Source: a virus
Lineage: Duplodnaviria; Caudoviricetes
Reading direction: 5' to 3' (one strand)
Virus record (IMG/VR): IMGVR_UViG_3300036760_000108
Coordinates: 1 to 58,802 of that record
Length of the DNA stretch: 58,802 nucleotides
Under the pieces are notes generated by a model that ran no database searches, was not told the origin of the DNA, and saw only the letters and a program-made list of their open reading frames with translations. A program made the position numbers and the translations under genes. This document shows positions 1 through 54,487 of this stretch, in pieces; position 1 is the stretch's first letter, and every line of letters starts with the position of its first letter.

Positions 1-428
1 CCGAGAATCCGGTATAACTGCCTGATTTGATTTTCCAAAATTGTTATCTCCATTCAGTTCCTCTAAAGTATAGCACGAGAGTGCTGATTTATCAAGGCTT
101 AAAGCTTAACCCAAGGAATCGTCTCTAGAATCTGCATCAAATGACGCGTCTGAGCTTTTGCGTCATCCAAGGCATTATGCTTTGTTCCCTCGAAGGCCGG
201 CACAGGTGCATTGGACAACTTGCACATGGTACGATAGCAAACGTCATACTTGTAGCTGACTGGATATTTCTGGTTAATAGCTTTGTACGCATTGTGCAAC
301 ACCACGTTGTCATAGGCCGCGCCGTTCCCAAAGATGTACGTCTCTTTGTTCGGCACGAATCGACTGAAAGCACCCAGAGCACTGGCTAATGAAACTGGAT
401 TTCTAAACGCTTCTCTGGCTTCCGGCTT
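1..428. repeat. Terminal direct repeat, left copy (circular overlap; imperfect)
   Basis: 1-428 aligns without gaps to 58375-58802; first 78 nt identical, about 31 substitutions by manual count. Confidence 0.95.
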
Positions 429-650
429 CTGCGAGAGCCACCACATGACCGTATCTGCTTTGATGTGGAGTCCGGCTTGCTGACTGCTATCCAAGCTCAC
501 GGCTGTGTAGAATAGCTGATCCTGTGTGAACTCAGTCTGCTTCACATTCAACCAGAACTTGACAGCGCCGATTGAGATGATCGAAGCATTGCTATCGGTT
601 GACATGCACTCAAGGTCGAGCATTATAGCATTATATGGAGTTACTTTCAT
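99..650 (-). CDS. 3'-5' exonuclease, DEDDh (Rv2179c/DUF5051-like)
   Basis: MLDLEC, SIGAV, GNGAAYDNVVL, HNALDDA motifs; ATG at 650 forms an ATGA overlap with the upstream stop. Confidence 0.85.
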   Translation of the reverse strand: MKVTPYNAIMLDLECMSTDSNASIISIGAVKFWLNVKQTEFTQDQLFYTAVSLDSSQQAGLHIKADTVMWWLSQKPEAREAFRNPVSLASALGAFSRFVPNKETYIFGNGAAYDNVVLHNAYKAINQKYPVSYKYDVCYRTMCKLSNAPVPAFEGTKHNALDDAKAQTRHLMQILETIPWVKL

Positions 651-1099
651 AATGTAGTTCGTCTGTTGTTCGCTTGTTGTTTTGCAGTTGCCCAACGACA
701 GTTACTATAGGTATACCATCCATCATTATCGAAACGGTCTAAGCTGGTTTTATCTGCTGGTCTACGTCCCATGTCTGCTAGAAAGTTTTCATACTTATGC
801 CAACGAATAGCAACTCCAATCCCGCGCCCACCATAATTCGGATACTTTTCTGCATGAGGGTTATAACATCGGTACATCATGTTCGCCCATGTGCGATACT
901 CAATACTCTTTGTATCACCATGCGTTCTATCTCTGAATTTCATGATCTTACGCCTAAGACAACCACAAGACTTTGTAGTGCCTGAGTTAAGATTAGTGCG
1001 CCAAGTACGGAACACATTTCCACATGAGCATAAGGCCAACACATATGCGTGTCCTTTAATAACTTCACAAATACGAATTATTTTTGGTATATGATTCAT
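647..1099 (-). CDS. HNH homing endonuclease
   Basis: CSCG, TKSCGC, YGGRGI, SLDRFDNDGWY..NCRWAT; start at ATGA overlap. Confidence 0.85.
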   Translation of the reverse strand: MNHIPKIIRICEVIKGHAYVLALCSCGNVFRTWRTNLNSGTTKSCGCLRRKIMKFRDRTHGDTKSIEYRTWANMMYRCYNPHAEKYPNYGGRGIGVAIRWHKYENFLADMGRRPADKTSLDRFDNDGWYTYSNCRWATAKQQANNRRTTL

Positions 1100-1326
1100 G
1101 GTTTTGGGTTCCACCAAATCATTGCTATTTTTAATGAATATTTAAGATCGTGCCCACATACGTGAGTCCAACATCCTGCATCCAAACCATTCACAAAAGA
1201 ATTAAGCCAACCTTTTAAGCACCGATTTGGTTCAGTATAACGATGTGTCCGTCTATAAATCCAATAAGCTATTGGTGAAGTAATCCACCATAATTTCCTC
1301 TTGAATTGAATAGCTAGATTACTCAC
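1096..1326 (-). CDS. Hypothetical protein
   Basis: ORF packed between neighbours; GTG start overlapping upstream stop (start uncertain). Confidence 0.45.
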   Translation of the reverse strand: MSNLAIQFKRKLWWITSPIAYWIYRRTHRYTEPNRCLKGWLNSFVNGLDAGCWTHVCGHDLKYSLKIAMIWWNPKP

Positions 1327-7357: not shown

Positions 7358-7489
7358 TTACCGCCCGCATGTGGCATCATTGTATTGTGATAACCACTCT
7401 CCACAATCTAAGCAAACGTAATGAATCTCTCCGGCCTTTTCCTCTCTAAACTCTAGCCTATGTTCCGTCAACGTCCTTTGACAAATCAT
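7358..7489 (-). CDS. Small Zn-ribbon protein
   Basis: MICQR...H...YVCLDCGE; start at ATGA overlap with GATase stop. Confidence 0.45.
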   Translation of the reverse strand: MICQRTLTEHRLEFREEKAGEIHYVCLDCGEWLSQYNDATCGR

Positions 7490-8433
7490 CGGTGCACCTC
7501 TAGAGCCGCTGGCGGCATGTCTTTTGTCTCGGCCTCTTTTAGCCACATCAAACAGTCTAAACAATAGCCCTCTGATAATTCCCCTAGTCCCCCGCACATG
7601 TCGCAATAGTCCGTTGTGGCGTGCGCCTTGTCTCTGTCATCCTTCCATGTGCTAAAGTCTTCCTTGTGCTCATCCTCATCTACTAGATTGCCGTGCGCTT
7701 GTGGCATCCTCGGCGCGTCTAGCTTATATCCACCACCATATGAGGCATAATCATAATCGGCAAGTGAAGAGCCTAGACCGCTAGAGGCATAGCCCGCCGT
7801 AAAGCTGTATGACTTATTCCGTGGTACGCGCTCATTCGTTAAGCGTGTAGCATCATGGAAAGTATAAATCATACCCTCGGCTAATTGCCGTACATGCGTA
7901 CATCCGATAGCCTTTAGCTGTTCCGCTTCACTCGCTAAGTATGTGCCGCCGTTATGACGGCCTCTGTATAGAGGATTGCCGCAACGGTACGCTTTAAGCT
8001 TGCCGCCTTCAATCCACACAAGAGCTATACAGCCCTCATACTTGCTAAAGTCTTTAGCCTTGATCCCATGTATCAAGCTCTGAGAGTCTACGGCATAGGT
8101 GCCGAAATCCTCATCATTGATAATGATACCGTTATGCGCGAACGCGATACCATCATCTAAGAAAGGATGAGCATTAGCGCTAGTAACGTCACCTTGTGTA
8201 GCGGCTCTAGTGTGACCGATAAACATACCAGATATTGCCGCTTCAGTTACTTCCTTGCGTAGTGTGGTATTCAATGCCACACAAGGCCTATCAGCTACTT
8301 TAGCTATGCGTACCTCATTGTTAGAGACGTAAGCAAGGCCTACGCTATCCGTGCCTCTATCCTCATTCATAGACCCTAGCGCAATCATCCGGTTACTGCT
8401 AAGCTTGCCTATCCCTGCAAATAATCCACACAT
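7486..8433 (-). CDS. Class II (Ntn) glutamine amidotransferase
   Basis: N-terminal MCG, RGTDSVG, GHTRAATQG, NAHPF, AHNGII, VDS; C-terminal CxxC..CxxC. Confidence 0.92.
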   Translation of the reverse strand: MCGLFAGIGKLSSNRMIALGSMNEDRGTDSVGLAYVSNNEVRIAKVADRPCVALNTTLRKEVTEAAISGMFIGHTRAATQGDVTSANAHPFLDDGIAFAHNGIIINDEDFGTYAVDSQSLIHGIKAKDFSKYEGCIALVWIEGGKLKAYRCGNPLYRGRHNGGTYLASEAEQLKAIGCTHVRQLAEGMIYTFHDATRLTNERVPRNKSYSFTAGYASSGLGSSLADYDYASYGGGYKLDAPRMPQAHGNLVDEDEHKEDFSTWKDDRDKAHATTDYCDMCGGLGELSEGYCLDCLMWLKEAETKDMPPAALEVHR

Positions 8434-8434
8434 G

Positions 8435-10060
8435 TTAACGATCACCCCCATTAGTATTATGAAACGCTTCACGGTCTAGGCTCATGGTACGCTCATCATC
8501 TGTCATCGGCAATTGTGCTATGCGCTCTTGCGCGTTACGCTCTGCTCTTTGTGCCGCCATTCCGTCATCTGGCCTTTGCCCGCTTGTATCTACAGGATAC
8601 CCGCCGATTGTTTCCGCAATTGACCACCCATAAAATTCAGGCGTGCCCGTCATCATCTGATAGGCCGTAACTTGGAGAGTAGCATTATCAATTCTAATGT
8701 TTTGTACGTCTCTCATCTCGTCATAGTGCGTAACCGTTAAAGTTTGCCCGCGCAATGTTTCAACGGCGGCCCGCATTGATTCGGCGGTAAGCACTCCGGC
8801 CCTCGGCTCTATGTTATTTGTCCTATGTATCACCACGTTAGACGGTGAGGCCGTGACAGCCTCGGCGGGCTCTTCCTCATCTGATACAGCCCATGGCCCT
8901 CTATGGTTACGCTCACAGTCTCGGCACACTCTCCCCCCGCAATACTCCCCCTCATCGTGCCTATTGTCTCGGCATGTGTAACAGTCCGGCGCATCTCCAC
9001 AATTGCCGCCCTCGTGACAATATTCACACTCGTTAGGCTCACAGTCACCGTCATCATGCGTTTGTGAATTACAACGGCCTTCCTCACCACATCCACAAGG
9101 GCACGAGTCATCATTGCTATCATCATCCTCTGAGCGGTTCGGCTCTGTAGCTTGATTATCGGAATAGAATTTCTTTAGCCGTCCTTTCAATTCACATTCC
9201 GCATTGTGCAAGGCAATCAATGGCCTATCAAACGCGCTCCATTCAATGCCTAAGCTTTTCAATTGACTATAGACCCATGCGGGTATAGGTTCATGCCGTT
9301 TATCTAAAGGCTTTACGTCTTCAATGATAGCTTTCAGCACATCAGAGAGCATATCAATAGAGGCCTTGCGGCTTTCAAACGGTCTATGCGCTATCTTCCA
9401 TCCTTCACGGCCTAAAAGCATACAGAAGGTAGACCATGCTAATACATATTTCCATCGATGAGTATTCCCTAGCAAGCGTACCTCTACCGTGCGTATGCCA
9501 CTAGGCCGGAATATCTCTACAGTGTTTAGCCAATGATACCGCCGTGAGTTATTGTACTTTGTAGACTCAAAACGTGTGCCCGCTTTCGTCTCTTCAATCT
9601 TTCGACAATAGCTATTAGATTTCCTTGCATCTGGTACGGCCTGAAATGCAAGGTCTTCTATATCCTTAGCTAGTGACTCGGTAGCAATGGCCCATTGCCG
9701 CAAGCGTGCCATTGACGCGCCTTGTATTCCCATATGCACATGATACCCGCATGACTTATCAGTATTAAGGCTAGGCGCGTGTACCAAATCTTTCAAGAGG
9801 CCTAGTACAAACTTAGGCGAACGTGTGACGGCGGGCAATACAACATATTCCGTACCGTCACCGTTTACGCTTCCATCACTGATTACATTTACTCCGGCTG
9901 GTACTCGTGCCGCACTATGGTTAGCCTCTAATTCCCAACCTAGCGAAAATTTAAACTTAGGGACGGGCGGCTCATAGGTGTACGTGTTGCGTGTGGAGCT
10001 ATACCGCACAATATTAGCCGGATGGTTCGGGCTAAGTATGCTTTCATTATTGGAAGGCAT
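8435..10060 (-). CDS. Putative amidoligase (COOH-NH2 ligase, Amidoligase_2) with Cys-rich extension
   Basis: GWELE, DGSV, SCGYHVH, RYHWLN, TVEVR motifs; adjacent to GATase-II. Confidence 0.85.
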   Translation of the reverse strand: MPSNNESILSPNHPANIVRYSSTRNTYTYEPPVPKFKFSLGWELEANHSAARVPAGVNVISDGSVNGDGTEYVVLPAVTRSPKFVLGLLKDLVHAPSLNTDKSCGYHVHMGIQGASMARLRQWAIATESLAKDIEDLAFQAVPDARKSNSYCRKIEETKAGTRFESTKYNNSRRYHWLNTVEIFRPSGIRTVEVRLLGNTHRWKYVLAWSTFCMLLGREGWKIAHRPFESRKASIDMLSDVLKAIIEDVKPLDKRHEPIPAWVYSQLKSLGIEWSAFDRPLIALHNAECELKGRLKKFYSDNQATEPNRSEDDDSNDDSCPCGCGEEGRCNSQTHDDGDCEPNECEYCHEGGNCGDAPDCYTCRDNRHDEGEYCGGRVCRDCERNHRGPWAVSDEEEPAEAVTASPSNVVIHRTNNIEPRAGVLTAESMRAAVETLRGQTLTVTHYDEMRDVQNIRIDNATLQVTAYQMMTGTPEFYGWSIAETIGGYPVDTSGQRPDDGMAAQRAERNAQERIAQLPMTDDERTMSLDREAFHNTNGGDR

Positions 10061-46115: not shown

Positions 46116-46295
46116 TTATAGCCCCCAATTCCTCATCTGTGCGTAGACCTGTTGAGACATGTTCTTGGATTCAAAGTAGTTTTCAAGTTCTTCGATTCCA
46201 GTGTTACTTTCGACTACCGTTTTTAGAAACTTGTCACCAATGACGCCTTCTAAGCCACGGAGCACGATCAATTGCCACAACTCTTGACCTTTCAT
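46116..46295 (-). CDS. Hypothetical protein (59 aa)
   Basis: Read manually; AGGAG RBS, ATGA overlap. Confidence 0.5.
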   Translation of the reverse strand: MKGQELWQLIVLRGLEGVIGDKFLKTVVESNTGIEELENYFESKNMSQQVYAQMRNWGL

Positions 46296-46759
46296 GTCCG
46301 TCTCCTTTTATTGCTATTTTGCTCAGACGAAGTAGCCCACCGACAGTTAAGAGGAGTATAATTTCCGTCATTATCTATTCGATCAAGGCTCATTCCTGTA
46401 GGTTTTGATCCCATATCCTTTAAGAAGTTTTCAAACGATTCCCGCCAAGGACCACAAACCGTAATGCCTCGACCTCCCCAGTGCTTATAATCTCGCCAAT
46501 TTTTACGATAGCATCGTTCATTCATTGAAGTCCACGTTTTATATTCTTTTGTCATACAACCGTCTCTTGCTTGTCCATGCTTTGTATTTAATTTTCCAAC
46601 TTGACTACAATTACTCTTAACTAAGCAACCACAAGATTTCGTATGACCACTACGAATTTCAGTTCGCTTTGCTACAAATACTTTTCCGCAGAAACACTCA
46701 TAAGTCCAGCGAGCATTTCCCCATTTGTCTCTGCGAACAAAGCCTAATTCTCTTAACAT
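46292..46759 (-). CDS. HNH homing endonuclease
   Basis: TKSCGC, WGGRGI, SLDRIDNDGNY..NCRWAT; same family as 647-1099. Confidence 0.88.
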   Translation of the reverse strand: MLRELGFVRRDKWGNARWTYECFCGKVFVAKRTEIRSGHTKSCGCLVKSNCSQVGKLNTKHGQARDGCMTKEYKTWTSMNERCYRKNWRDYKHWGGRGITVCGPWRESFENFLKDMGSKPTGMSLDRIDNDGNYTPLNCRWATSSEQNSNKRRRT

Positions 46760-48289: not shown

Positions 48290-48547
48290 TTATTCACCCT
48301 CCGGTGGCACATAACTCCCACCTGTCGTAAAGGTACCAGGTTCACTAGGGAACCATTGCATGCCATCAGCAGTCCAACCTTCCACACTCGTTCCAACCGT
48401 CGTTATAACGAATGCCCGTCCACGCGCCAATCGAAGCATCTGCAAAGCCATGGCATCTCGCGCTGATACCAATCTATTATATAGCATGTCCGATAGGTCT
48501 TTGTCAAGGCTCAATTTAACCGCATCTACAAATTGAGGGGTTTCCAT
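48290..48547 (-). CDS. Hypothetical protein
   Basis: ORF in operon. Confidence 0.55.
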   Translation of the reverse strand: METPQFVDAVKLSLDKDLSDMLYNRLVSARDAMALQMLRLARGRAFVITTVGTSVEGWTADGMQWFPSEPGTFTTGGSYVPPEGE

Positions 48548-49017
48548 TATTTTGCCTCCCTGAACAACTTCGCTATAGCCTTAGCTTGTTTAAACAAAAG
48601 CCCATCTTCGGGAGTCGTTTGAAAGAAATGACCGATTCCTGGTTTAACTGCGATAGCAGCAGATTCATCATCGTCTATGATGACATATTTCGTAATCCCT
48701 GGATTATCTTCAAGCCACAAATTAATTTCATGTCCTCGATCTCCACTAAAAACAGCAGGGGTTTTACCAATAATCCTAGAAGCTGTCACACCATAGCTAT
48801 TTAGGATATTTCCCAATTCCACGTTTGTATGCAGTTTACGCCAAGTTGAAGAAATTACAATTTTAACAGAAGAATCCAGGTCAAGTATATATTGCAGATT
48901 GGAACAGGACACAGGATTAAGCGTATCGCTCACCTTGCTGTTCTTTCGACGAACCTCCATACGGAAACTAGCTTCCGAATTTAGGACACCATCAAAGTCT
49001 AGAAAAATTACTTTCAT
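48547..49017 (-). CDS. HAD phosphatase (Swiss Army Knife RNA-repair-like)
   Basis: FLDFDGVLN, IVISSTWR, RGHEI, YVIIDDD, DGL. Confidence 0.9.
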   Translation of the reverse strand: MKVIFLDFDGVLNSEASFRMEVRRKNSKVSDTLNPVSCSNLQYILDLDSSVKIVISSTWRKLHTNVELGNILNSYGVTASRIIGKTPAVFSGDRGHEINLWLEDNPGITKYVIIDDDESAAIAVKPGIGHFFQTTPEDGLLFKQAKAIAKLFREAK

Positions 49018-49952
49018 AAAATCTCCTGAGAGAATTGAGTAACGGTTTCTTTTTCAAATTGCTTCTCAAGCAGCATCTTCTTATAGTACTCTGGGAAACC
49101 ACCTGTGATAATACGTGCAATCTTAGGCCATGCTTGTTTGAAAAGCTCTTCTTTGATCTCCGCTTCACATTCCTTTAACACATCTACGTTGATCTCTTTA
49201 AGGAGTTTACCAATGTCAGTTGGAGAATCTTCGAGCTGTCCGGCTTCTTTAAGATGCTGAATGCTCTTATTCCATCGAGCTGGGGTCTTGTAGCTCAATG
49301 CCACTTTCTCAACAATCTCATTATGCGTTGGGTTGCTGGATTTCCAGTTCCCACCATGCACTTCTTTGAAGACCTCTGAGACATATTTACCAAATAGGAC
49401 CTTTTTGTCGATACCAAAAAGTCCATAGCCAACGGGTTTCACCACGACACCTTCAATTTTCTGGCCACCTAAGAAGCTCACCGTTTCTAAGAAAGCTTTG
49501 AGCTGTTCAGCGGATTCTACCATTCCTGTAAAAAGAAGAGGTACAACTTCTAAATCCAGTCGTTCTGCTTCTTTCACAACCTCTTCATAATGCAGGTAGC
49601 ACTCTTCTCCGTTATTCACGTCAAAAATCACGACATTGTGACGCGGTACACGGTCATAAGCCAACGTGTTGTGTTTAGGCCGGCACAGAACCTCTCCACG
49701 ATATGTGTAGCCGGGAGTCAATTGGTCTTTCAACGAATTGACATAGGTCACAGCATCTTTGAACAGCTTATCCGCCGTTTCCATGTACACAATAGCACCT
49801 TTTGACTTGGTGATGACTGTTCCATCTTCATCCAAACCAAATGAGAACTGTGAACCATCAACTTTCTCCTGCACATAGACTGGACCCACTAAAAGGCCAG
49901 CTACACATCTATGACCAAATGAATAGATGTGGGGATATCCATGAAGTTTCAT
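49014..49952 (-). CDS. ATP-dependent RNA ligase (Rnl2-like)
   Basis: EKVDGS, YRGE, IFDV, VPLL, EGVVVK, KYVSEVFKE. Confidence 0.85.
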   Translation of the reverse strand: MKLHGYPHIYSFGHRCVAGLLVGPVYVQEKVDGSQFSFGLDEDGTVITKSKGAIVYMETADKLFKDAVTYVNSLKDQLTPGYTYRGEVLCRPKHNTLAYDRVPRHNVVIFDVNNGEECYLHYEEVVKEAERLDLEVVPLLFTGMVESAEQLKAFLETVSFLGGQKIEGVVVKPVGYGLFGIDKKVLFGKYVSEVFKEVHGGNWKSSNPTHNEIVEKVALSYKTPARWNKSIQHLKEAGQLEDSPTDIGKLLKEINVDVLKECEAEIKEELFKQAWPKIARIITGGFPEYYKKMLLEKQFEKETVTQFSQEIL

Positions 49953-50747
49953 TTATTGTACCTCTCTAAGACGGTTCACACGATGTTCTTTTGTGAGTAT
50001 ATTAATGGGACTTCGAGGCCATTTACCACAGTCCAGACAACGATAGACTTGATACTTCCCAACCTCAGTGTGTGCATAACCTTTCTTAATGAGGCGAATA
50101 CTTCCGCAGCGGCACTGCATCTTCCCACCATTCCCAATCGGTGAGATATTCTGAGTCCTGATCCATCCTCGGACTTGATGATAATGCTCTTCCGTCGATA
50201 AAACATCATGTTTACAGTACGTTTCCATCTCTTTCCACGCATCGAGTTTATTAGCCATACATGCTTTCCATAGTTCAAAGCCCGGATACTTCTCATGCTT
50301 GAGCTTCTTGTATTTACTATCAACCAAATCCGTCTTATACGCAAGTTTGTGCGATGTGAAAGCAAACACTCGACGCTCTTCCGTCAAGATATCAGTGATC
50401 TTCACAGGTTTAAAAGGGGGCAGTCCATGAATCATAGCTCTAGCAGCTAATTTTCTGATATCAAAGGCTTTTACATTCTGTCCAATAATAACATCAGCTT
50501 CATCCATCAAGGAAGCAAGACCTTTGATAAGTGCTTTATCATCATAGATATCTCTTTTACCCCGATTGTCCATGTAGATAATCTCATTGGCTGGTCTTCC
50601 ATACCAATGAGCGGCCCAGGCACATACAGACCAGTCTCGTTTTAAAAATTCTAACGGAATGTGCACTTCACCGAGTGTCCATGAATAGACCTCGCAAGGG
50701 AAGTTTTCTATATCGAGCGTAAGAACTTTCAATGGCTCATTATACAT
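49953..50747 (-). CDS. RNase H-like/DnaQ-type exonuclease with Zn finger
   Basis: LDIE, GQNVKAFD, YCKHDV, CRCG..CLDC. Confidence 0.85.
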   Translation of the reverse strand: MYNEPLKVLTLDIENFPCEVYSWTLGEVHIPLEFLKRDWSVCAWAAHWYGRPANEIIYMDNRGKRDIYDDKALIKGLASLMDEADVIIGQNVKAFDIRKLAARAMIHGLPPFKPVKITDILTEERRVFAFTSHKLAYKTDLVDSKYKKLKHEKYPGFELWKACMANKLDAWKEMETYCKHDVLSTEEHYHQVRGWIRTQNISPIGNGGKMQCRCGSIRLIKKGYAHTEVGKYQVYRCLDCGKWPRSPINILTKEHRVNRLREVQ

Positions 50748-51443: not shown

Positions 51444-51592
51444 TTTTCTAACTCCACAGGTACTTCAATCACGATATGGGACTTGTCTTCGGCCCACCGG
51501 ATATAGATTTTTCTTCCTGACGGCGCTATCAACTGCATAGAGTCTGCAGGATAGACCCTATAGAACACATAAGACTCAGCATCTTTATTCAT
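51440..51592 (-). CDS. Hypothetical protein (50 aa)
   Basis: Read manually; coupled to polA and resolvase. Confidence 0.45.
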   Translation of the reverse strand: MNKDAESYVFYRVYPADSMQLIAPSGRKIYIRWAEDKSHIVIEVPVELEK

Positions 51593-53382
51593 TATTTAGC
51601 CTCAAACCAGTTGCGCCCGAATCCACCATTGGCGGTCAAAGGCACATCCAGTTTCACAATGTTATCAAGAATCTGTTTGATCTCCACCATAGCCTTTTCT
51701 GTCTGGTCTGGGGCTGTCTCGAAGTGCAATTCATCATGCACCTGCAAAAGAGGCATGTATCCCTTCGCCGTCGTTTGCAGCATTCCCAATTTGATGATAT
51801 CAGCCTCACTACCTTGAATGATATAGTTCACAGCTGTACGTTCTGCATGCATTCGCTCAAATATATTTCGACTATCAATGTCAGGTAACGGGATAACTCG
51901 GCCAAAGATAGTCTTCACACTCTTATGCACATGCGCTAGATTCTTAGTCCTAAAAACCCATCGTGCGACTCCTGGTAACCTAACCCAGTAAAGCTTGTAG
52001 AACTTTTCAGCATCCTCAAGGCTACATTTGGCAATCTCTGCAATCTTCTCAGGCATCGAACCAAATACGGCGCCAAAGTTTAGACATTTTCCTAGACTAC
52101 GTTCTTTCTTGGTGATAATCTCTTTCCCTAAGAGGATGCGGGCTGTCTCTTCGTGAACGTCTTTCCCATTTCGGAAGGCATTGAGAAGGACTGGCTCTTT
52201 TGTATAGTGTGCCAGAATACGGTATTGCATCTGGTCAAAATCGAAAACGACCAAATCCTTCCCTGCACTAGGAATGAATCCCGACCTAAGCGCTTTACCG
52301 GTAGTTTCCTCATCAGAATCTCCCGCCTTACTGATCTGCTGTAGATTCGGCTCTTTGGATGACAGCCGGCCCGTCCGAATACCCTTCCAATCACCTGACT
52401 GTTCATCCAGAGACACCTGACTGAACGTGGTGTGAATTTTAGGCATTGTCGGCAGCGCCAACCAGTTTTCGAGGAACGTACCAACCACTTTATTGATCTT
52501 TCGATATTCCAAGAGCAAGTTCACAAATTCGTCACTGCGGTATGGCTCCAAGGCTGCCTTATCAGCATTTTGAAGCTGATAACCGAAGGTATTCAGGGCT
52601 TCTTTTACTTGAATAGGACTTGCGGGGTTAAACTCATGCATATGAGCTTTCTTAGGACAGCTTTTCTTACATTTGATAACGTAATTTCTATCTGCCACAA
52701 GAGTACGTAGGTCCAGCAATAGAGTCGCAGCTTCACCACTGAATTCCTCCTTCAAAGCACGGAAATAATCCATGTCAACTGTTACACCACGCATTTCCAT
52801 TGCAAAGAGCAACTGCATGGTCGGCAATTCGATATTGTTGTAGTAGCCCCTCTGAGCCGGATTCATCATCTTGTCAAAATATTGATTCAACCTGAATGTG
52901 GCCACACAGTCATCTCCACAATAAGCAGCCACCTTATCAAGGTCCTGCTTGTCCAATGTGAGCTTGGCCCGCCCTTCACCAACCATTTCTTTGTATGTCG
53001 GCCATTCCATTCCCAGATACTCTTTGGCAAGGTCTTTTAAGCCGTGACTTTCCTTGGTGCTATTACGCACATAAGATTTCAACATCGTGTCATGAATCAA
53101 CTTTGACTGGTGGATTTCCACACCCCAAGAGCATAGTTGACGCGCATCAAACTTAATATTGTGCCCAATGAGACTAACAGAAGACAGAAAAGCACGCACG
53201 TCAGGACGAAGATCGGAATAATAGCTAACAGAACTGGAATCGCACATAATGCCGATACCAGTGAAATCACAACCCTCATTAGTTTCAACATCAATAACCG
53301 CAACCTTTCCTGTAGGTATTGTGGGTGGGTTAATAAGTAATTCAATACCATATTTATTTGGCCCCCAATTATAATTAGTCAT
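51592..53382 (-). CDS. polA: DNA polymerase family A with 3'-5' exonuclease
   Basis: DVET, HNIKFD, YCGDD; RTGRLSS..PNLQ, motifs A/B/C (DFDQMQYR, RSLGKCLNFG, QVHDEL). Confidence 0.95.
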   Translation of the reverse strand: MTNYNWGPNKYGIELLINPPTIPTGKVAVIDVETNEGCDFTGIGIMCDSSSVSYYSDLRPDVRAFLSSVSLIGHNIKFDARQLCSWGVEIHQSKLIHDTMLKSYVRNSTKESHGLKDLAKEYLGMEWPTYKEMVGEGRAKLTLDKQDLDKVAAYCGDDCVATFRLNQYFDKMMNPAQRGYYNNIELPTMQLLFAMEMRGVTVDMDYFRALKEEFSGEAATLLLDLRTLVADRNYVIKCKKSCPKKAHMHEFNPASPIQVKEALNTFGYQLQNADKAALEPYRSDEFVNLLLEYRKINKVVGTFLENWLALPTMPKIHTTFSQVSLDEQSGDWKGIRTGRLSSKEPNLQQISKAGDSDEETTGKALRSGFIPSAGKDLVVFDFDQMQYRILAHYTKEPVLLNAFRNGKDVHEETARILLGKEIITKKERSLGKCLNFGAVFGSMPEKIAEIAKCSLEDAEKFYKLYWVRLPGVARWVFRTKNLAHVHKSVKTIFGRVIPLPDIDSRNIFERMHAERTAVNYIIQGSEADIIKLGMLQTTAKGYMPLLQVHDELHFETAPDQTEKAMVEIKQILDNIVKLDVPLTANGGFGRNWFEAK

Positions 53383-53911
53383 AGTGAGGGCACACTCCTT
53401 TATTTTGTGCTTTTCCAAAATTACAATTCATACACAATATTTGAAAACGGTCTTTAGGCCAACCTTGTGCTTTTAAATCTTTTAATAAGCGTAAGCCCGT
53501 CACTTTTTTCCGATGTAAGTTTCCATCATTGTTCACATGATCTAGTGTCAAAAACTTGAAATTATTTTCTTTACAGCAATTACAGATAGTTCCGTAAACA
53601 CTAAACATTTCCCTTCTTAACTCTTTGAGTTTTTCTGATATCACACTATACCGTACTTTGTTGTAGTACTCTTTGTGCTTTTGTCGCTCTCGTACTGTGT
53701 TCTCTTTATAAAACTGTTTATTATAAGCTCGCTTTGGTTCAGGATTTTGTTTATTCTTTTCCTTCATTCTACTTAAAATACTGTTACGATGATTTAAATA
53801 ATATTTTTTATAATAGTTATGCCGTTTTAATTTCTTTTCAACACCGAACTTATCAGGACCGAATGTAATACGATTCGGTTCCGCAATAGTAATTTGTTCG
53901 TCTAAAGACAT
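53375..53911 (-). CDS. HNH endonuclease
   Basis: CNCC, LTLDHVNNDG, QILCMNCN. Confidence 0.85.
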   Translation of the reverse strand: MSLDEQITIAEPNRITFGPDKFGVEKKLKRHNYYKKYYLNHRNSILSRMKEKNKQNPEPKRAYNKQFYKENTVRERQKHKEYYNKVRYSVISEKLKELRREMFSVYGTICNCCKENNFKFLTLDHVNNDGNLHRKKVTGLRLLKDLKAQGWPKDRFQILCMNCNFGKAQNKGVCPHYD

Positions 53912-53959
53912 TATTAGCTCCTGAGTAAGTATACCATGAAAAGCTTGAAAAAGCAAGGC

Positions 53960-54487
53960 CTATTTATCCTTTTTTGTGAACTTATCAATGAGACGGGCAG
54001 CGGCTCCCGGCTTCGGACGGTTGTCAATCAGGTGTCCCGTCTCTAAAGCGTCAATAATGATCCCTACACAAGCTTTTGCATGGGCTAAATGTGGAAGCCA
54101 TGAATGTCCATTTTTGCAAGCCACTTTCGGATTAGCCAAACGCTCTTTGCAGCCTTCACAATTCTCTAAATCCTGATCCAAGTCAGCCCCGTCTTGGAAT
54201 TCCAGCAAGTGTCTCATGGCCGCTTCAAGGTAGATCATGACCTGCACACTCTTATCCCGCCAGTTGTACGGACCATACTTTTCAGCACCATTCCCCATTG
54301 CCAAGGCTTCATAAATCATCCCAGCCGGAGACACCAATGACAAACGAGGTTTCTTTGATCCAATCAAGTCCTTGGGATTTGTGTCATCTTTCACAGGGTC
54401 TAAAGGCATCGTTACACTCCTTGGATTATCAGTCGGAATTACACCAAATGGCTTGAACGTCACAATACAGCCTTCCATCTCGTTCAT
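53960..54487 (-). CDS. dATP/dGTP diphosphohydrolase (DUF5664)
   Basis: NPKD..G.KK..L, GAEKYGPYNWR, AAMRHL, HLAHA, DNRP. Confidence 0.88.
   Translation of the reverse strand: MNEMEGCIVTFKPFGVIPTDNPRSVTMPLDPVKDDTNPKDLIGSKKPRLSLVSPAGMIYEALAMGNGAEKYGPYNWRDKSVQVMIYLEAAMRHLLEFQDGADLDQDLENCEGCKERLANPKVACKNGHSWLPHLAHAKACVGIIIDALETGHLIDNRPKPGAAARLIDKFTKKDK

Follow-up and report, generated by a model that had tools for sequence, protein, structure and literature searches.

A Gln/Phe/Glu triad at the gate region of a phage family A DNA polymerase and its recurrence in other PolA lineages

The family A DNA polymerase (PolA) studied here is encoded by IMG/VR virus record IMGVR_UViG_3300036760_000108 (Duplodnaviria; Caudoviricetes), analysed over its full 58,802 nucleotides, hereafter called the window. 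In this enzyme the steric-gate residue corresponding to E710 of the Klenow fragment is glutamine (Gln398), its partner corresponding to Y766 is phenylalanine (Phe452), and a third residue, at the position of A852 in Pol I, is glutamate (Glu538). The same three residues are found in PolAs of a separate subfamily, and loss of the gate glutamate goes together with Glu852 wherever the two could be compared as independent evolutionary events. The reading preferred here, with modest confidence, is that an active-site carboxylate may have been relocated from motif A to helix Q with polymerase function preserved.

Results

Residues were numbered by alignment to the 928-aa Pol I of Salmonella (E. coli numbering). 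In the HMMER pairing with Klenow, DFDQMQYR is matched to DYSQIELR, and RSLGKCLNFGAVFG to RRSAKAINFGLIYG. This pairing, the alignment to Salmonella Pol I and the codons themselves all confirm the assignment, first made in an earlier note drawn from the letters of this DNA, of Gln to the E710 position and Phe to the Y766 position. Both gate codons fall inside the interval 52060-52250.

From a database of 5.8 billion proteins, 120 relatives were retrieved and aligned with the window polymerase (121 rows). Gln and Phe occur in all 53 proteins with at least 56% identity, and Glu and Tyr in all 68 with 52% identity or less. An exhaustive HMMER search contributed 145 further representatives and enlarged the set to 266 proteins, whose states at 710/766 are E/Y (192), Q/F (55), D/Y (8), E/F (5), D/N (4), E/L (1) and E/N (1). 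Gln710 is always paired with Phe766 in this set. The 51 full-length Q/F proteins form a single clade with Shimodaira-Hasegawa (SH)-like support of 100 in a FastTree tree of 144 rows, nested within sisters that have E/Y/A at positions 710/766/852. The sister of the clade is P0054-56 (E/Y, support 89), and the next lineage out comprises P0057, P0060, P0063, P0066 and P0122 (support 98). Whether Q/F defines a clade had been posed as a check in the earlier note; it does, in all 55 members, with Glu and Tyr in the sister lineages. Gln/Phe is a marker of a monophyletic clade of uncultured phages.

The codons vary without changing the residues: across four related DNA sequences, Gln is encoded by CAA or CAG and Phe by TTT or TTC. 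Three more runs of sediment metagenomes, drawn from three studies, contain contigs with 80-95% similarity to the polymerase gene. These contigs span both gate codons, and none of the 40 differences listed falls on the codons, but there are 285 more differences and the comparison is given no weight. No near-identical DNA was found in cultured phages, and a search of one genome per species for a host or prophage copy returned solely cellular Pol I at 31-33% identity.

The third residue was found by seeking alignment columns that are fixed in the Q/F clade and different elsewhere. Position 852 is Glu in all 54 clade members that reach motif 6. Ala occupies it in 67 of the 68 closely related E/Y proteins and in 118 of the remaining 143. 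The codon is GAA in relatives of the window and GCN in the sisters, and synonymous variation is present at all three triad sites. The paired change described in the earlier note is real in that both residues are altered, but the pair belongs to a triad whose third member, Glu538, lies outside 52060-52250. Among the 211 proteins of the 266-protein set with a Glu or Asp gate, the sole case of Glu852 is P0242, a 912-aa cellular-type Pol I that carries Glu710 and Glu852 together (QGSEGD). P0242 could be an intermediate state.

Two further proposals were rejected. Tyr405, at Pol I position 717, is clade-specific and not recurrent, and is not counted as a component of the triad. Acquisition of the triad by recombination from the other Q/F/E subfamily, described below, was set aside because motif 6 departs from that of the sisters only at the Ala-to-Glu site, which was judged a point change.

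Recurrence outside the clade was examined at the DNA level. Degenerate patterns for motif A with a Gln gate, run over 2.9 million viral contigs, matched 12 stretches, and a second pattern added one. Three of the 13 belong to the window clade, seven are one repeated out-of-frame sequence, and three are unrelated PolAs (L044, L049 and L051) of a subfamily that adjoins the beta-clamp gene in cultured phages. All three have Gln710, Phe766 and Glu852 by alignment. The second subfamily was then represented by 120 database relatives of L044 and 14 reference rows (134 in total). Its 101 Glu-gate rows are E/Y/A (79), E/Y/S (8), E/Y/G (7), E/Y/N (1), E/F/G (3) and E/F/A (3), with Glu852 in none. The rows with another gate are Q/F/E (22), Q/M/E (4), H/Y/E (6) and H/N/E (1), with Glu852 in all 33. 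The His/Tyr/Glu form is present in two cultured phages, Paracoccus phage vB_PmaS-R3 and Sphingomonas phage Birtae.

Scans of the same viral contigs gave at least 119 stretches with a Glu gate and 30 with a His gate. In open reading frames (ORFs) whose motif 6 could be read, with regular expressions used for the reading, Glu852 was present in 0 of 92 Glu-gate ORFs among the matches listed, in 24 of 24 His-gate ORFs and in 5 of 5 Gln-gate ORFs. A metagenome scan of 241 million records yielded 32 stretches, comprising 20 chance matches and 12 PolAs (11 of the window clade and one of the other subfamily); each of the ten PolAs that reach motif 6 has Glu852.

Other states at these positions were also seen. 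Four viral PolAs (P0149, P0166, P0170 and P0194) share a co-varying combination of Asp710, Asn766 and Thr or Ser852, mostly with Leu762. Phe766 alongside an unchanged Glu gate (E/F/A or E/F/G) occurs beyond the DpoZ polymerases in 5 of the 266 proteins and 6 of the 134, and regular expressions assigned Phe766 to 15 of 119 Glu-gate viral-contig ORFs among the matches listed.

On the 144-row FastTree tree, the loss of the gate Glu requires eight changes and the gain of Glu852 also requires eight. For independent pairs on well-supported branches, gate loss coincides with Glu852 gain in 7 of 7 (sign test, p = 0.0156). Position 766 changes alongside in about six of the seven pairs and never in the opposite direction. 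The change counts, the 7/7 pairs and the p value were the same in an IQ-TREE quick search (LG+G4, 76 rows, three trait columns removed). Both are single-gene trees with hand-picked rows, namely each non-Glu group and its neighbours, and support is moderate in places. By the evidence of these alignments and trees, the triad is one that arose repeatedly in unrelated PolA lineages, with about eight origins.

The remainder of the enzyme is that of a proofreading family A polymerase (Table 1). The protein matches PF00476 (DNA_pol_A; 1.7e-79, 268 bits against a Pfam cut-off of 34.3) and PF01612 (DNA_pol_A_exo1; 2.7e-12), and its best solved relatives are structures of the Klenow fragment (1D8Y and others; E 5e-67 by HMMER). 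The carboxylates D393 (D705), D562 (D882) and E563 (E883) are present, as are the core residues R440 (R754), K444 (K758), F448 (762), R351 (R668), N531 (N845) and Q535 (Q849). The proofreading signatures Exo I DxE, Exo II D and Exo III YxxxD are likewise complete; the exonuclease and motif C are intact, as previously noted. The Glu gate and Tyr766 of family A are both lacking (Gln398, Phe452); membership of family A stands nonetheless, because the Glu/Tyr pair is a conserved feature and not one that delimits the family. The gene adjoins a DnaB-like helicase gene. It encodes the replicative proofreading family A DNA polymerase of a phage, and the enzyme probably remains an ordinary replicase.

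One further departure from other PolAs is an acidic loop in place of the IPxR segment. In Taq polymerase, Arg682 of the NIPxR motif contacts the primer terminus, according to the available text of PMC6125688. The loop is common to the window clade and its nearest E/Y sisters (P0054-57, P0060, P0063 and P0066) and is therefore older than the Gln/Phe change. Loss of Arg682 was rejected as a component of the gate change, given the loop in these sisters and the retention of Arg in L044 and L051. An AlphaFold2 (AF2) model of the polymerase has a predicted local distance difference test (pLDDT) score of 81.6, with residues 330-372, including the acidic loop, below 50.

Table 1. Features of the window polymerase gene and of other genes in the window.
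Feature	Position	Strand	Remarks
Family A DNA polymerase gene with N-terminal 3'-5' exonuclease domain	51592..53418	-	608 aa from TTG at 53418
Alternative start of the polymerase	ATG at 53382	-	Met13; 596 aa, as in database copy P0002
Exo I (D43, E45), Exo II (D91), Exo III (Y166, D170)	52909..53292	-	Kept; invariant in Q/F clade
Loop SKAGDSDEET where other PolAs have IPxR	52303..52332	-	Arg682 equivalent replaced by Lys and a 5-6 residue acidic loop
Motif A, DFDQMQYR, residues 393-400	52219..52242	-	D393 = D705, kept
Gln398, codon CAA	52225..52227	-	Klenow E710 steric-gate position; invariant in 55/55 clade members
Tyr405	52204..52206	-	Pol I position 717; Tyr in 51/55 clade members, Phe in most sisters
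Motif B (helix O), RSLGKCLNFGAVFG, residues 440-453	52060..52101	-	R754, K758 and F762 equivalents kept
Phe452, codon TTT	52063..52065	-	Klenow Y766 position; invariant in 55/55 clade members
Motif 6 (helix Q), NYIIQGSEADIIK, residues 531-543	51790..51828	-	N845 and Q849 equivalents kept
Glu538, codon GAG	51805..51807	-	Pol I A852 position, motif 6; third triad member
Motif C, His-Asp-Glu	51730..51738	-	H881, D882 and E883 equivalents; intact
RNA-repair-like gene set	48547-49952, 99-695	-	RNA ligase (PF09414), HAD_SAK_2 phosphatase-like domain, Rv2179c-like 3'-5' exoribonuclease
PF18909 protein gene	53960-54487	-	175 aa; two ORFs upstream of polA
HNH endonuclease gene	53375-53956	-	Directly upstream of polA
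HNH endonuclease gene	647-1117	-	
HNH endonuclease gene	46292-46759	-	
phrog_403 protein gene	49953-50747	-	264 aa; 'DNA polymerase exonuclease subunit' (4.6e-80)
Class-II glutamine amidotransferase and Amidoligase_2 genes	7486-10060	-	Adjoining genes

Genome context

The window (1-58802) is the whole phage record, with a CheckV completeness of 100%, no end repeats and a GC content of 43.6%, and it is circularly permuted with respect to the related contig behind L001. The plus strand carries the structural genes, at about 14.5-40 kb, and the minus strand the replication and early genes. Three HNH endonuclease genes are present; those at 647-1117 and 46292-46759 are paralogues, and both match the same sites in related loci. 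A class-II glutamine amidotransferase gene adjoins an Amidoligase_2 gene.

The phrog_403 protein, which has Cys pairs near its C-terminus, is kept beside PolA in Q/F and E/Y phages despite the exonuclease domain of PolA itself. The PF18909 protein has the N-terminal domain only, without the catalytic half, and its homologues adjoin PolA in both Q/F and E/Y phages; no solved relative was found. On these grounds, and with homologues beside the E/Y sister polymerases, it was rejected as a MazZ-like partner. The RNA-repair-like set is found in genomes of the window clade; the flanks examined around the E/Y sister loci did not show it. Its RNA ligase, HAD_SAK_2 protein and Rv2179c-like exonuclease were considered as partners of a ribonucleotide-tolerant polymerase and rejected.

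Discussion

E710 and Y766 are hydrogen-bonded, line the nascent base-pair pocket and are called universally conserved in the available text of PMC3715850 and PMC4882331, in agreement with the contact and conservation attributed to them at the outset. E710 is the steric gate against ribonucleotides. In Klenow, E710Q is a mutator with a Kd2 for A-dTTP of 230 µM vs 0.83 µM and a low kpol, and Y766F behaves much like the wild-type enzyme (Hohlbein et al. 2013, PMC3715850). The 2023 reclassification of PolA describes the catalytic residues as strictly conserved and Phe at position B4 of motif B as unique to DpoZ, at least in the portions of that paper available here (PMC10201439). The literature searched, which lies outside subscription papers and supplements (e.g., the motif logos of PMC10201439), yielded no account of Glu852 or of a natural PolA with Gln or His at the gate. 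To that extent, the triad appears undescribed.

A mechanism can be proposed for the preferred reading, carboxylate relocation. In canonical enzymes the carboxylate of Glu710 is located beneath the sugar of the incoming dNTP and is hydrogen-bonded by the Tyr766 hydroxyl. Replacement of Glu710 by Gln398 keeps the shape and removes the charge. Glu538, three residues past the Gln849 equivalent on helix Q, would supply the carboxylate missing from Gln398 and may pair with the Gln398 amide. Lying i+3 from Q849 and i+7 from N845, position 852 is expected on the same face of helix Q, adjoining the gate residue. The gate Glu can be placed beside this face because, in the available text of PMC6125688, one water at the dNTP minor groove of Taq is common to E615, N750 and Q754. 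With the Tyr766 hydroxyl left partnerless or redundant, Tyr could be replaced by Phe and sometimes Met; with a His gate, Tyr would stay. Gln398 would retain aliphatic bulk under C2' and exclude a 2'-OH. The enzyme would thus still make ordinary DNA from dNTPs, possibly with a modest kinetic or fidelity shift. Since E/F/A, E/F/G and E/Y/E states occur, intermediates appear to be accessible. Viable phages with a non-Glu gate and Glu852 are known in culture, namely the Paracoccus and Sphingomonas phages with H/Y/E. Because the association of Glu852 with loss of the gate Glu is perfect, compensation that preserves function appears the better explanation, and new sugar or base selectivity, which the earlier note had raised, is less likely given the compensating Glu.

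Several points weigh against carboxylate relocation. The contact between residues 398 and 538 is one that we infer from sequence. Klenow E710Q is strongly impaired (PMC3715850, available text). P0242 bears both Glu710 and Glu852, and two carboxylates are therefore tolerated in at least that protein. The states at 766 in the contig scans were taken from regular expressions, with a few mis-hits, such as L051, whose state was taken from the alignment. No Q/F/E cultured phage was among the best matches of three Q/F/E queries in a phage collection that was scanned non-exhaustively; the best cultured matches had at most about 50% identity, and those inspected were E/Y/A or H/Y/E. Finally, about eight convergent origins could equally signal positive selection for an altered property.

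This last point leads to a different explanation, which is possible but held to be doubtful: the triad may be an adaptive shift in substrate selection or fidelity, selected repeatedly by similar pressures in different phages. What is selected could be, for example, looser or stricter discrimination between sugars, acceptance of modified dNTPs, resistance to a host-made nucleotide analogue or a tuned mutation rate. Positions 710 and 766 contact the sugar and base of the incoming nucleotide, Klenow E710Q alters dNTP binding and fidelity (PMC3715850), some eight independent origins are more easily explained by a selective advantage, and Phe766 is the sole substitution common to both DpoZ clades in the available text of PMC8599892 and PMC10201439. 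However, the strict co-gain of Glu852 resembles restoration of a carboxylate and not its loss, Gln is isosteric with Glu, and closing of Klenow E710Q on rUTP was not improved (Table 1 of PMC3715850). No accessory gene tracks the triad: PurZ was not found in the window or in five other Q/F/E records, and the RNA ligase and Rv2179c-like exonuclease are confined to the window clade and were not found in the independent Q/F/E records G001 and G003 (both 100% complete; HAD_SAK_2 was not searched there). A bolder form of the idea, considered unlikely, is that Gln(His)710/Phe766/Glu852 enzymes might constitute a distinct functional PolA class, convergently acquired about eight times, with sugar or analogue selectivity unlike that of Glu/Tyr enzymes. 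If so, such a polymerase might, for example, tolerate ribo- or 2'-modified nucleotides or be insensitive to a host-made chain-terminating nucleotide, and would aid phage replication under host nucleotide-based defence or in an unusual nucleotide pool.

Two other explanations are far less probable. The earlier note pointed to DpoZ as a comparison, and the window polymerase has Phe at motif B position B4 as DpoZ does (PMC8599892, PMC10201439, available text); a nearby gene also matches PF18909, the N-terminal domain of dATP/dGTP diphosphohydrolase (9e-19; phrog_801). It is nevertheless highly improbable that the polymerase is DpoZ-like and serves a phage whose genome is modified (2-aminoadenine or other). 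The DpoZ of phiVC8 is E/F/A at 710/766/852 and, at 23% identity, is no closer to the window polymerase than Pol I is; the window polymerase falls outside the phiVC8-like cluster, and apart from PolA no window protein matches phiVC8. PurZ (Adenylsucc_synt, PF00709) was not found at E <= 1 in this 100%-complete record; the controls matched in 14 of 14 cases. The homologues of the PF18909 protein adjoin E/Y polymerases in L005 and L020, and Phe766 by itself is fairly common in viral PolAs. The DpoZ-like explanation is largely refuted. It is equally hard to credit that the three substitutions are uncoupled, drifting lineage markers or products of gene decay or assembly error. Within the window clade all three changes lie on a single branch, and the clade alone cannot show coupling, but the same combination accompanies gate loss in independent lineages, in 7 of 7 pairs. 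The ORF is intact, codons vary synonymously at the three sites, the catalytic residues are invariant across a clade diverging to 56% identity, and the combination is present in dozens of independent assemblies. Sequencing or assembly error and gene decay are excluded. The view that selection and not decay shaped this site is upheld by clade-wide conservation, synonymous codon variation, convergent recurrence and the integrity of the other motifs.

Natural enzymes in which both of these textbook residues are replaced, always together with a new Glu on helix Q, represent a second, repeatedly reached evolutionary solution for the gate region of the family A active site. They also offer a new scaffold on which polymerases for modified sugars could be engineered, an area in which steric-gate mutants are usually crippled. 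The results advise caution in surveys that use Phe766 as a signature of DpoZ or that filter metagenomic PolAs by invariant residues.

Comparison with known systems

The window enzyme shares with Klenow and Pol I the order of the 3'-5' exonuclease and polymerase domains and the conserved metal-binding, triphosphate-binding and minor-groove residues, at about 30% identity. It differs in having Gln for E710, Phe for Y766, Glu for A852 and a Lys-containing acidic loop for Arg682. The Klenow mutants E710Q and Y766F carry the same substitutions at the same positions (PMC3715850). In the available text of that paper, they were made singly in an Ala852 background, where E710Q is crippled and mutagenic, whereas natural Gln-gate enzymes always add Glu852.

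DpoZ of the phiVC8-like and Wayne-like groups resembles the window enzyme as a proofreading family A polymerase with Phe at the Y766 position. Unlike the window enzyme, the phiVC8 DpoZ has a Glu gate and Ala852, and the window phage is without a PurZ or DatZ cluster. A parallel in cultured phages is provided by the PolAs of Paracoccus phage vB_PmaS-R3 and Sphingomonas phage Birtae, in which the gate Glu is lost and Glu852 is present, as in the window enzyme. These polymerases differ from it in having a His gate, in keeping Tyr766 and in belonging to the other subfamily, beside the beta-clamp gene, at about 25% identity.

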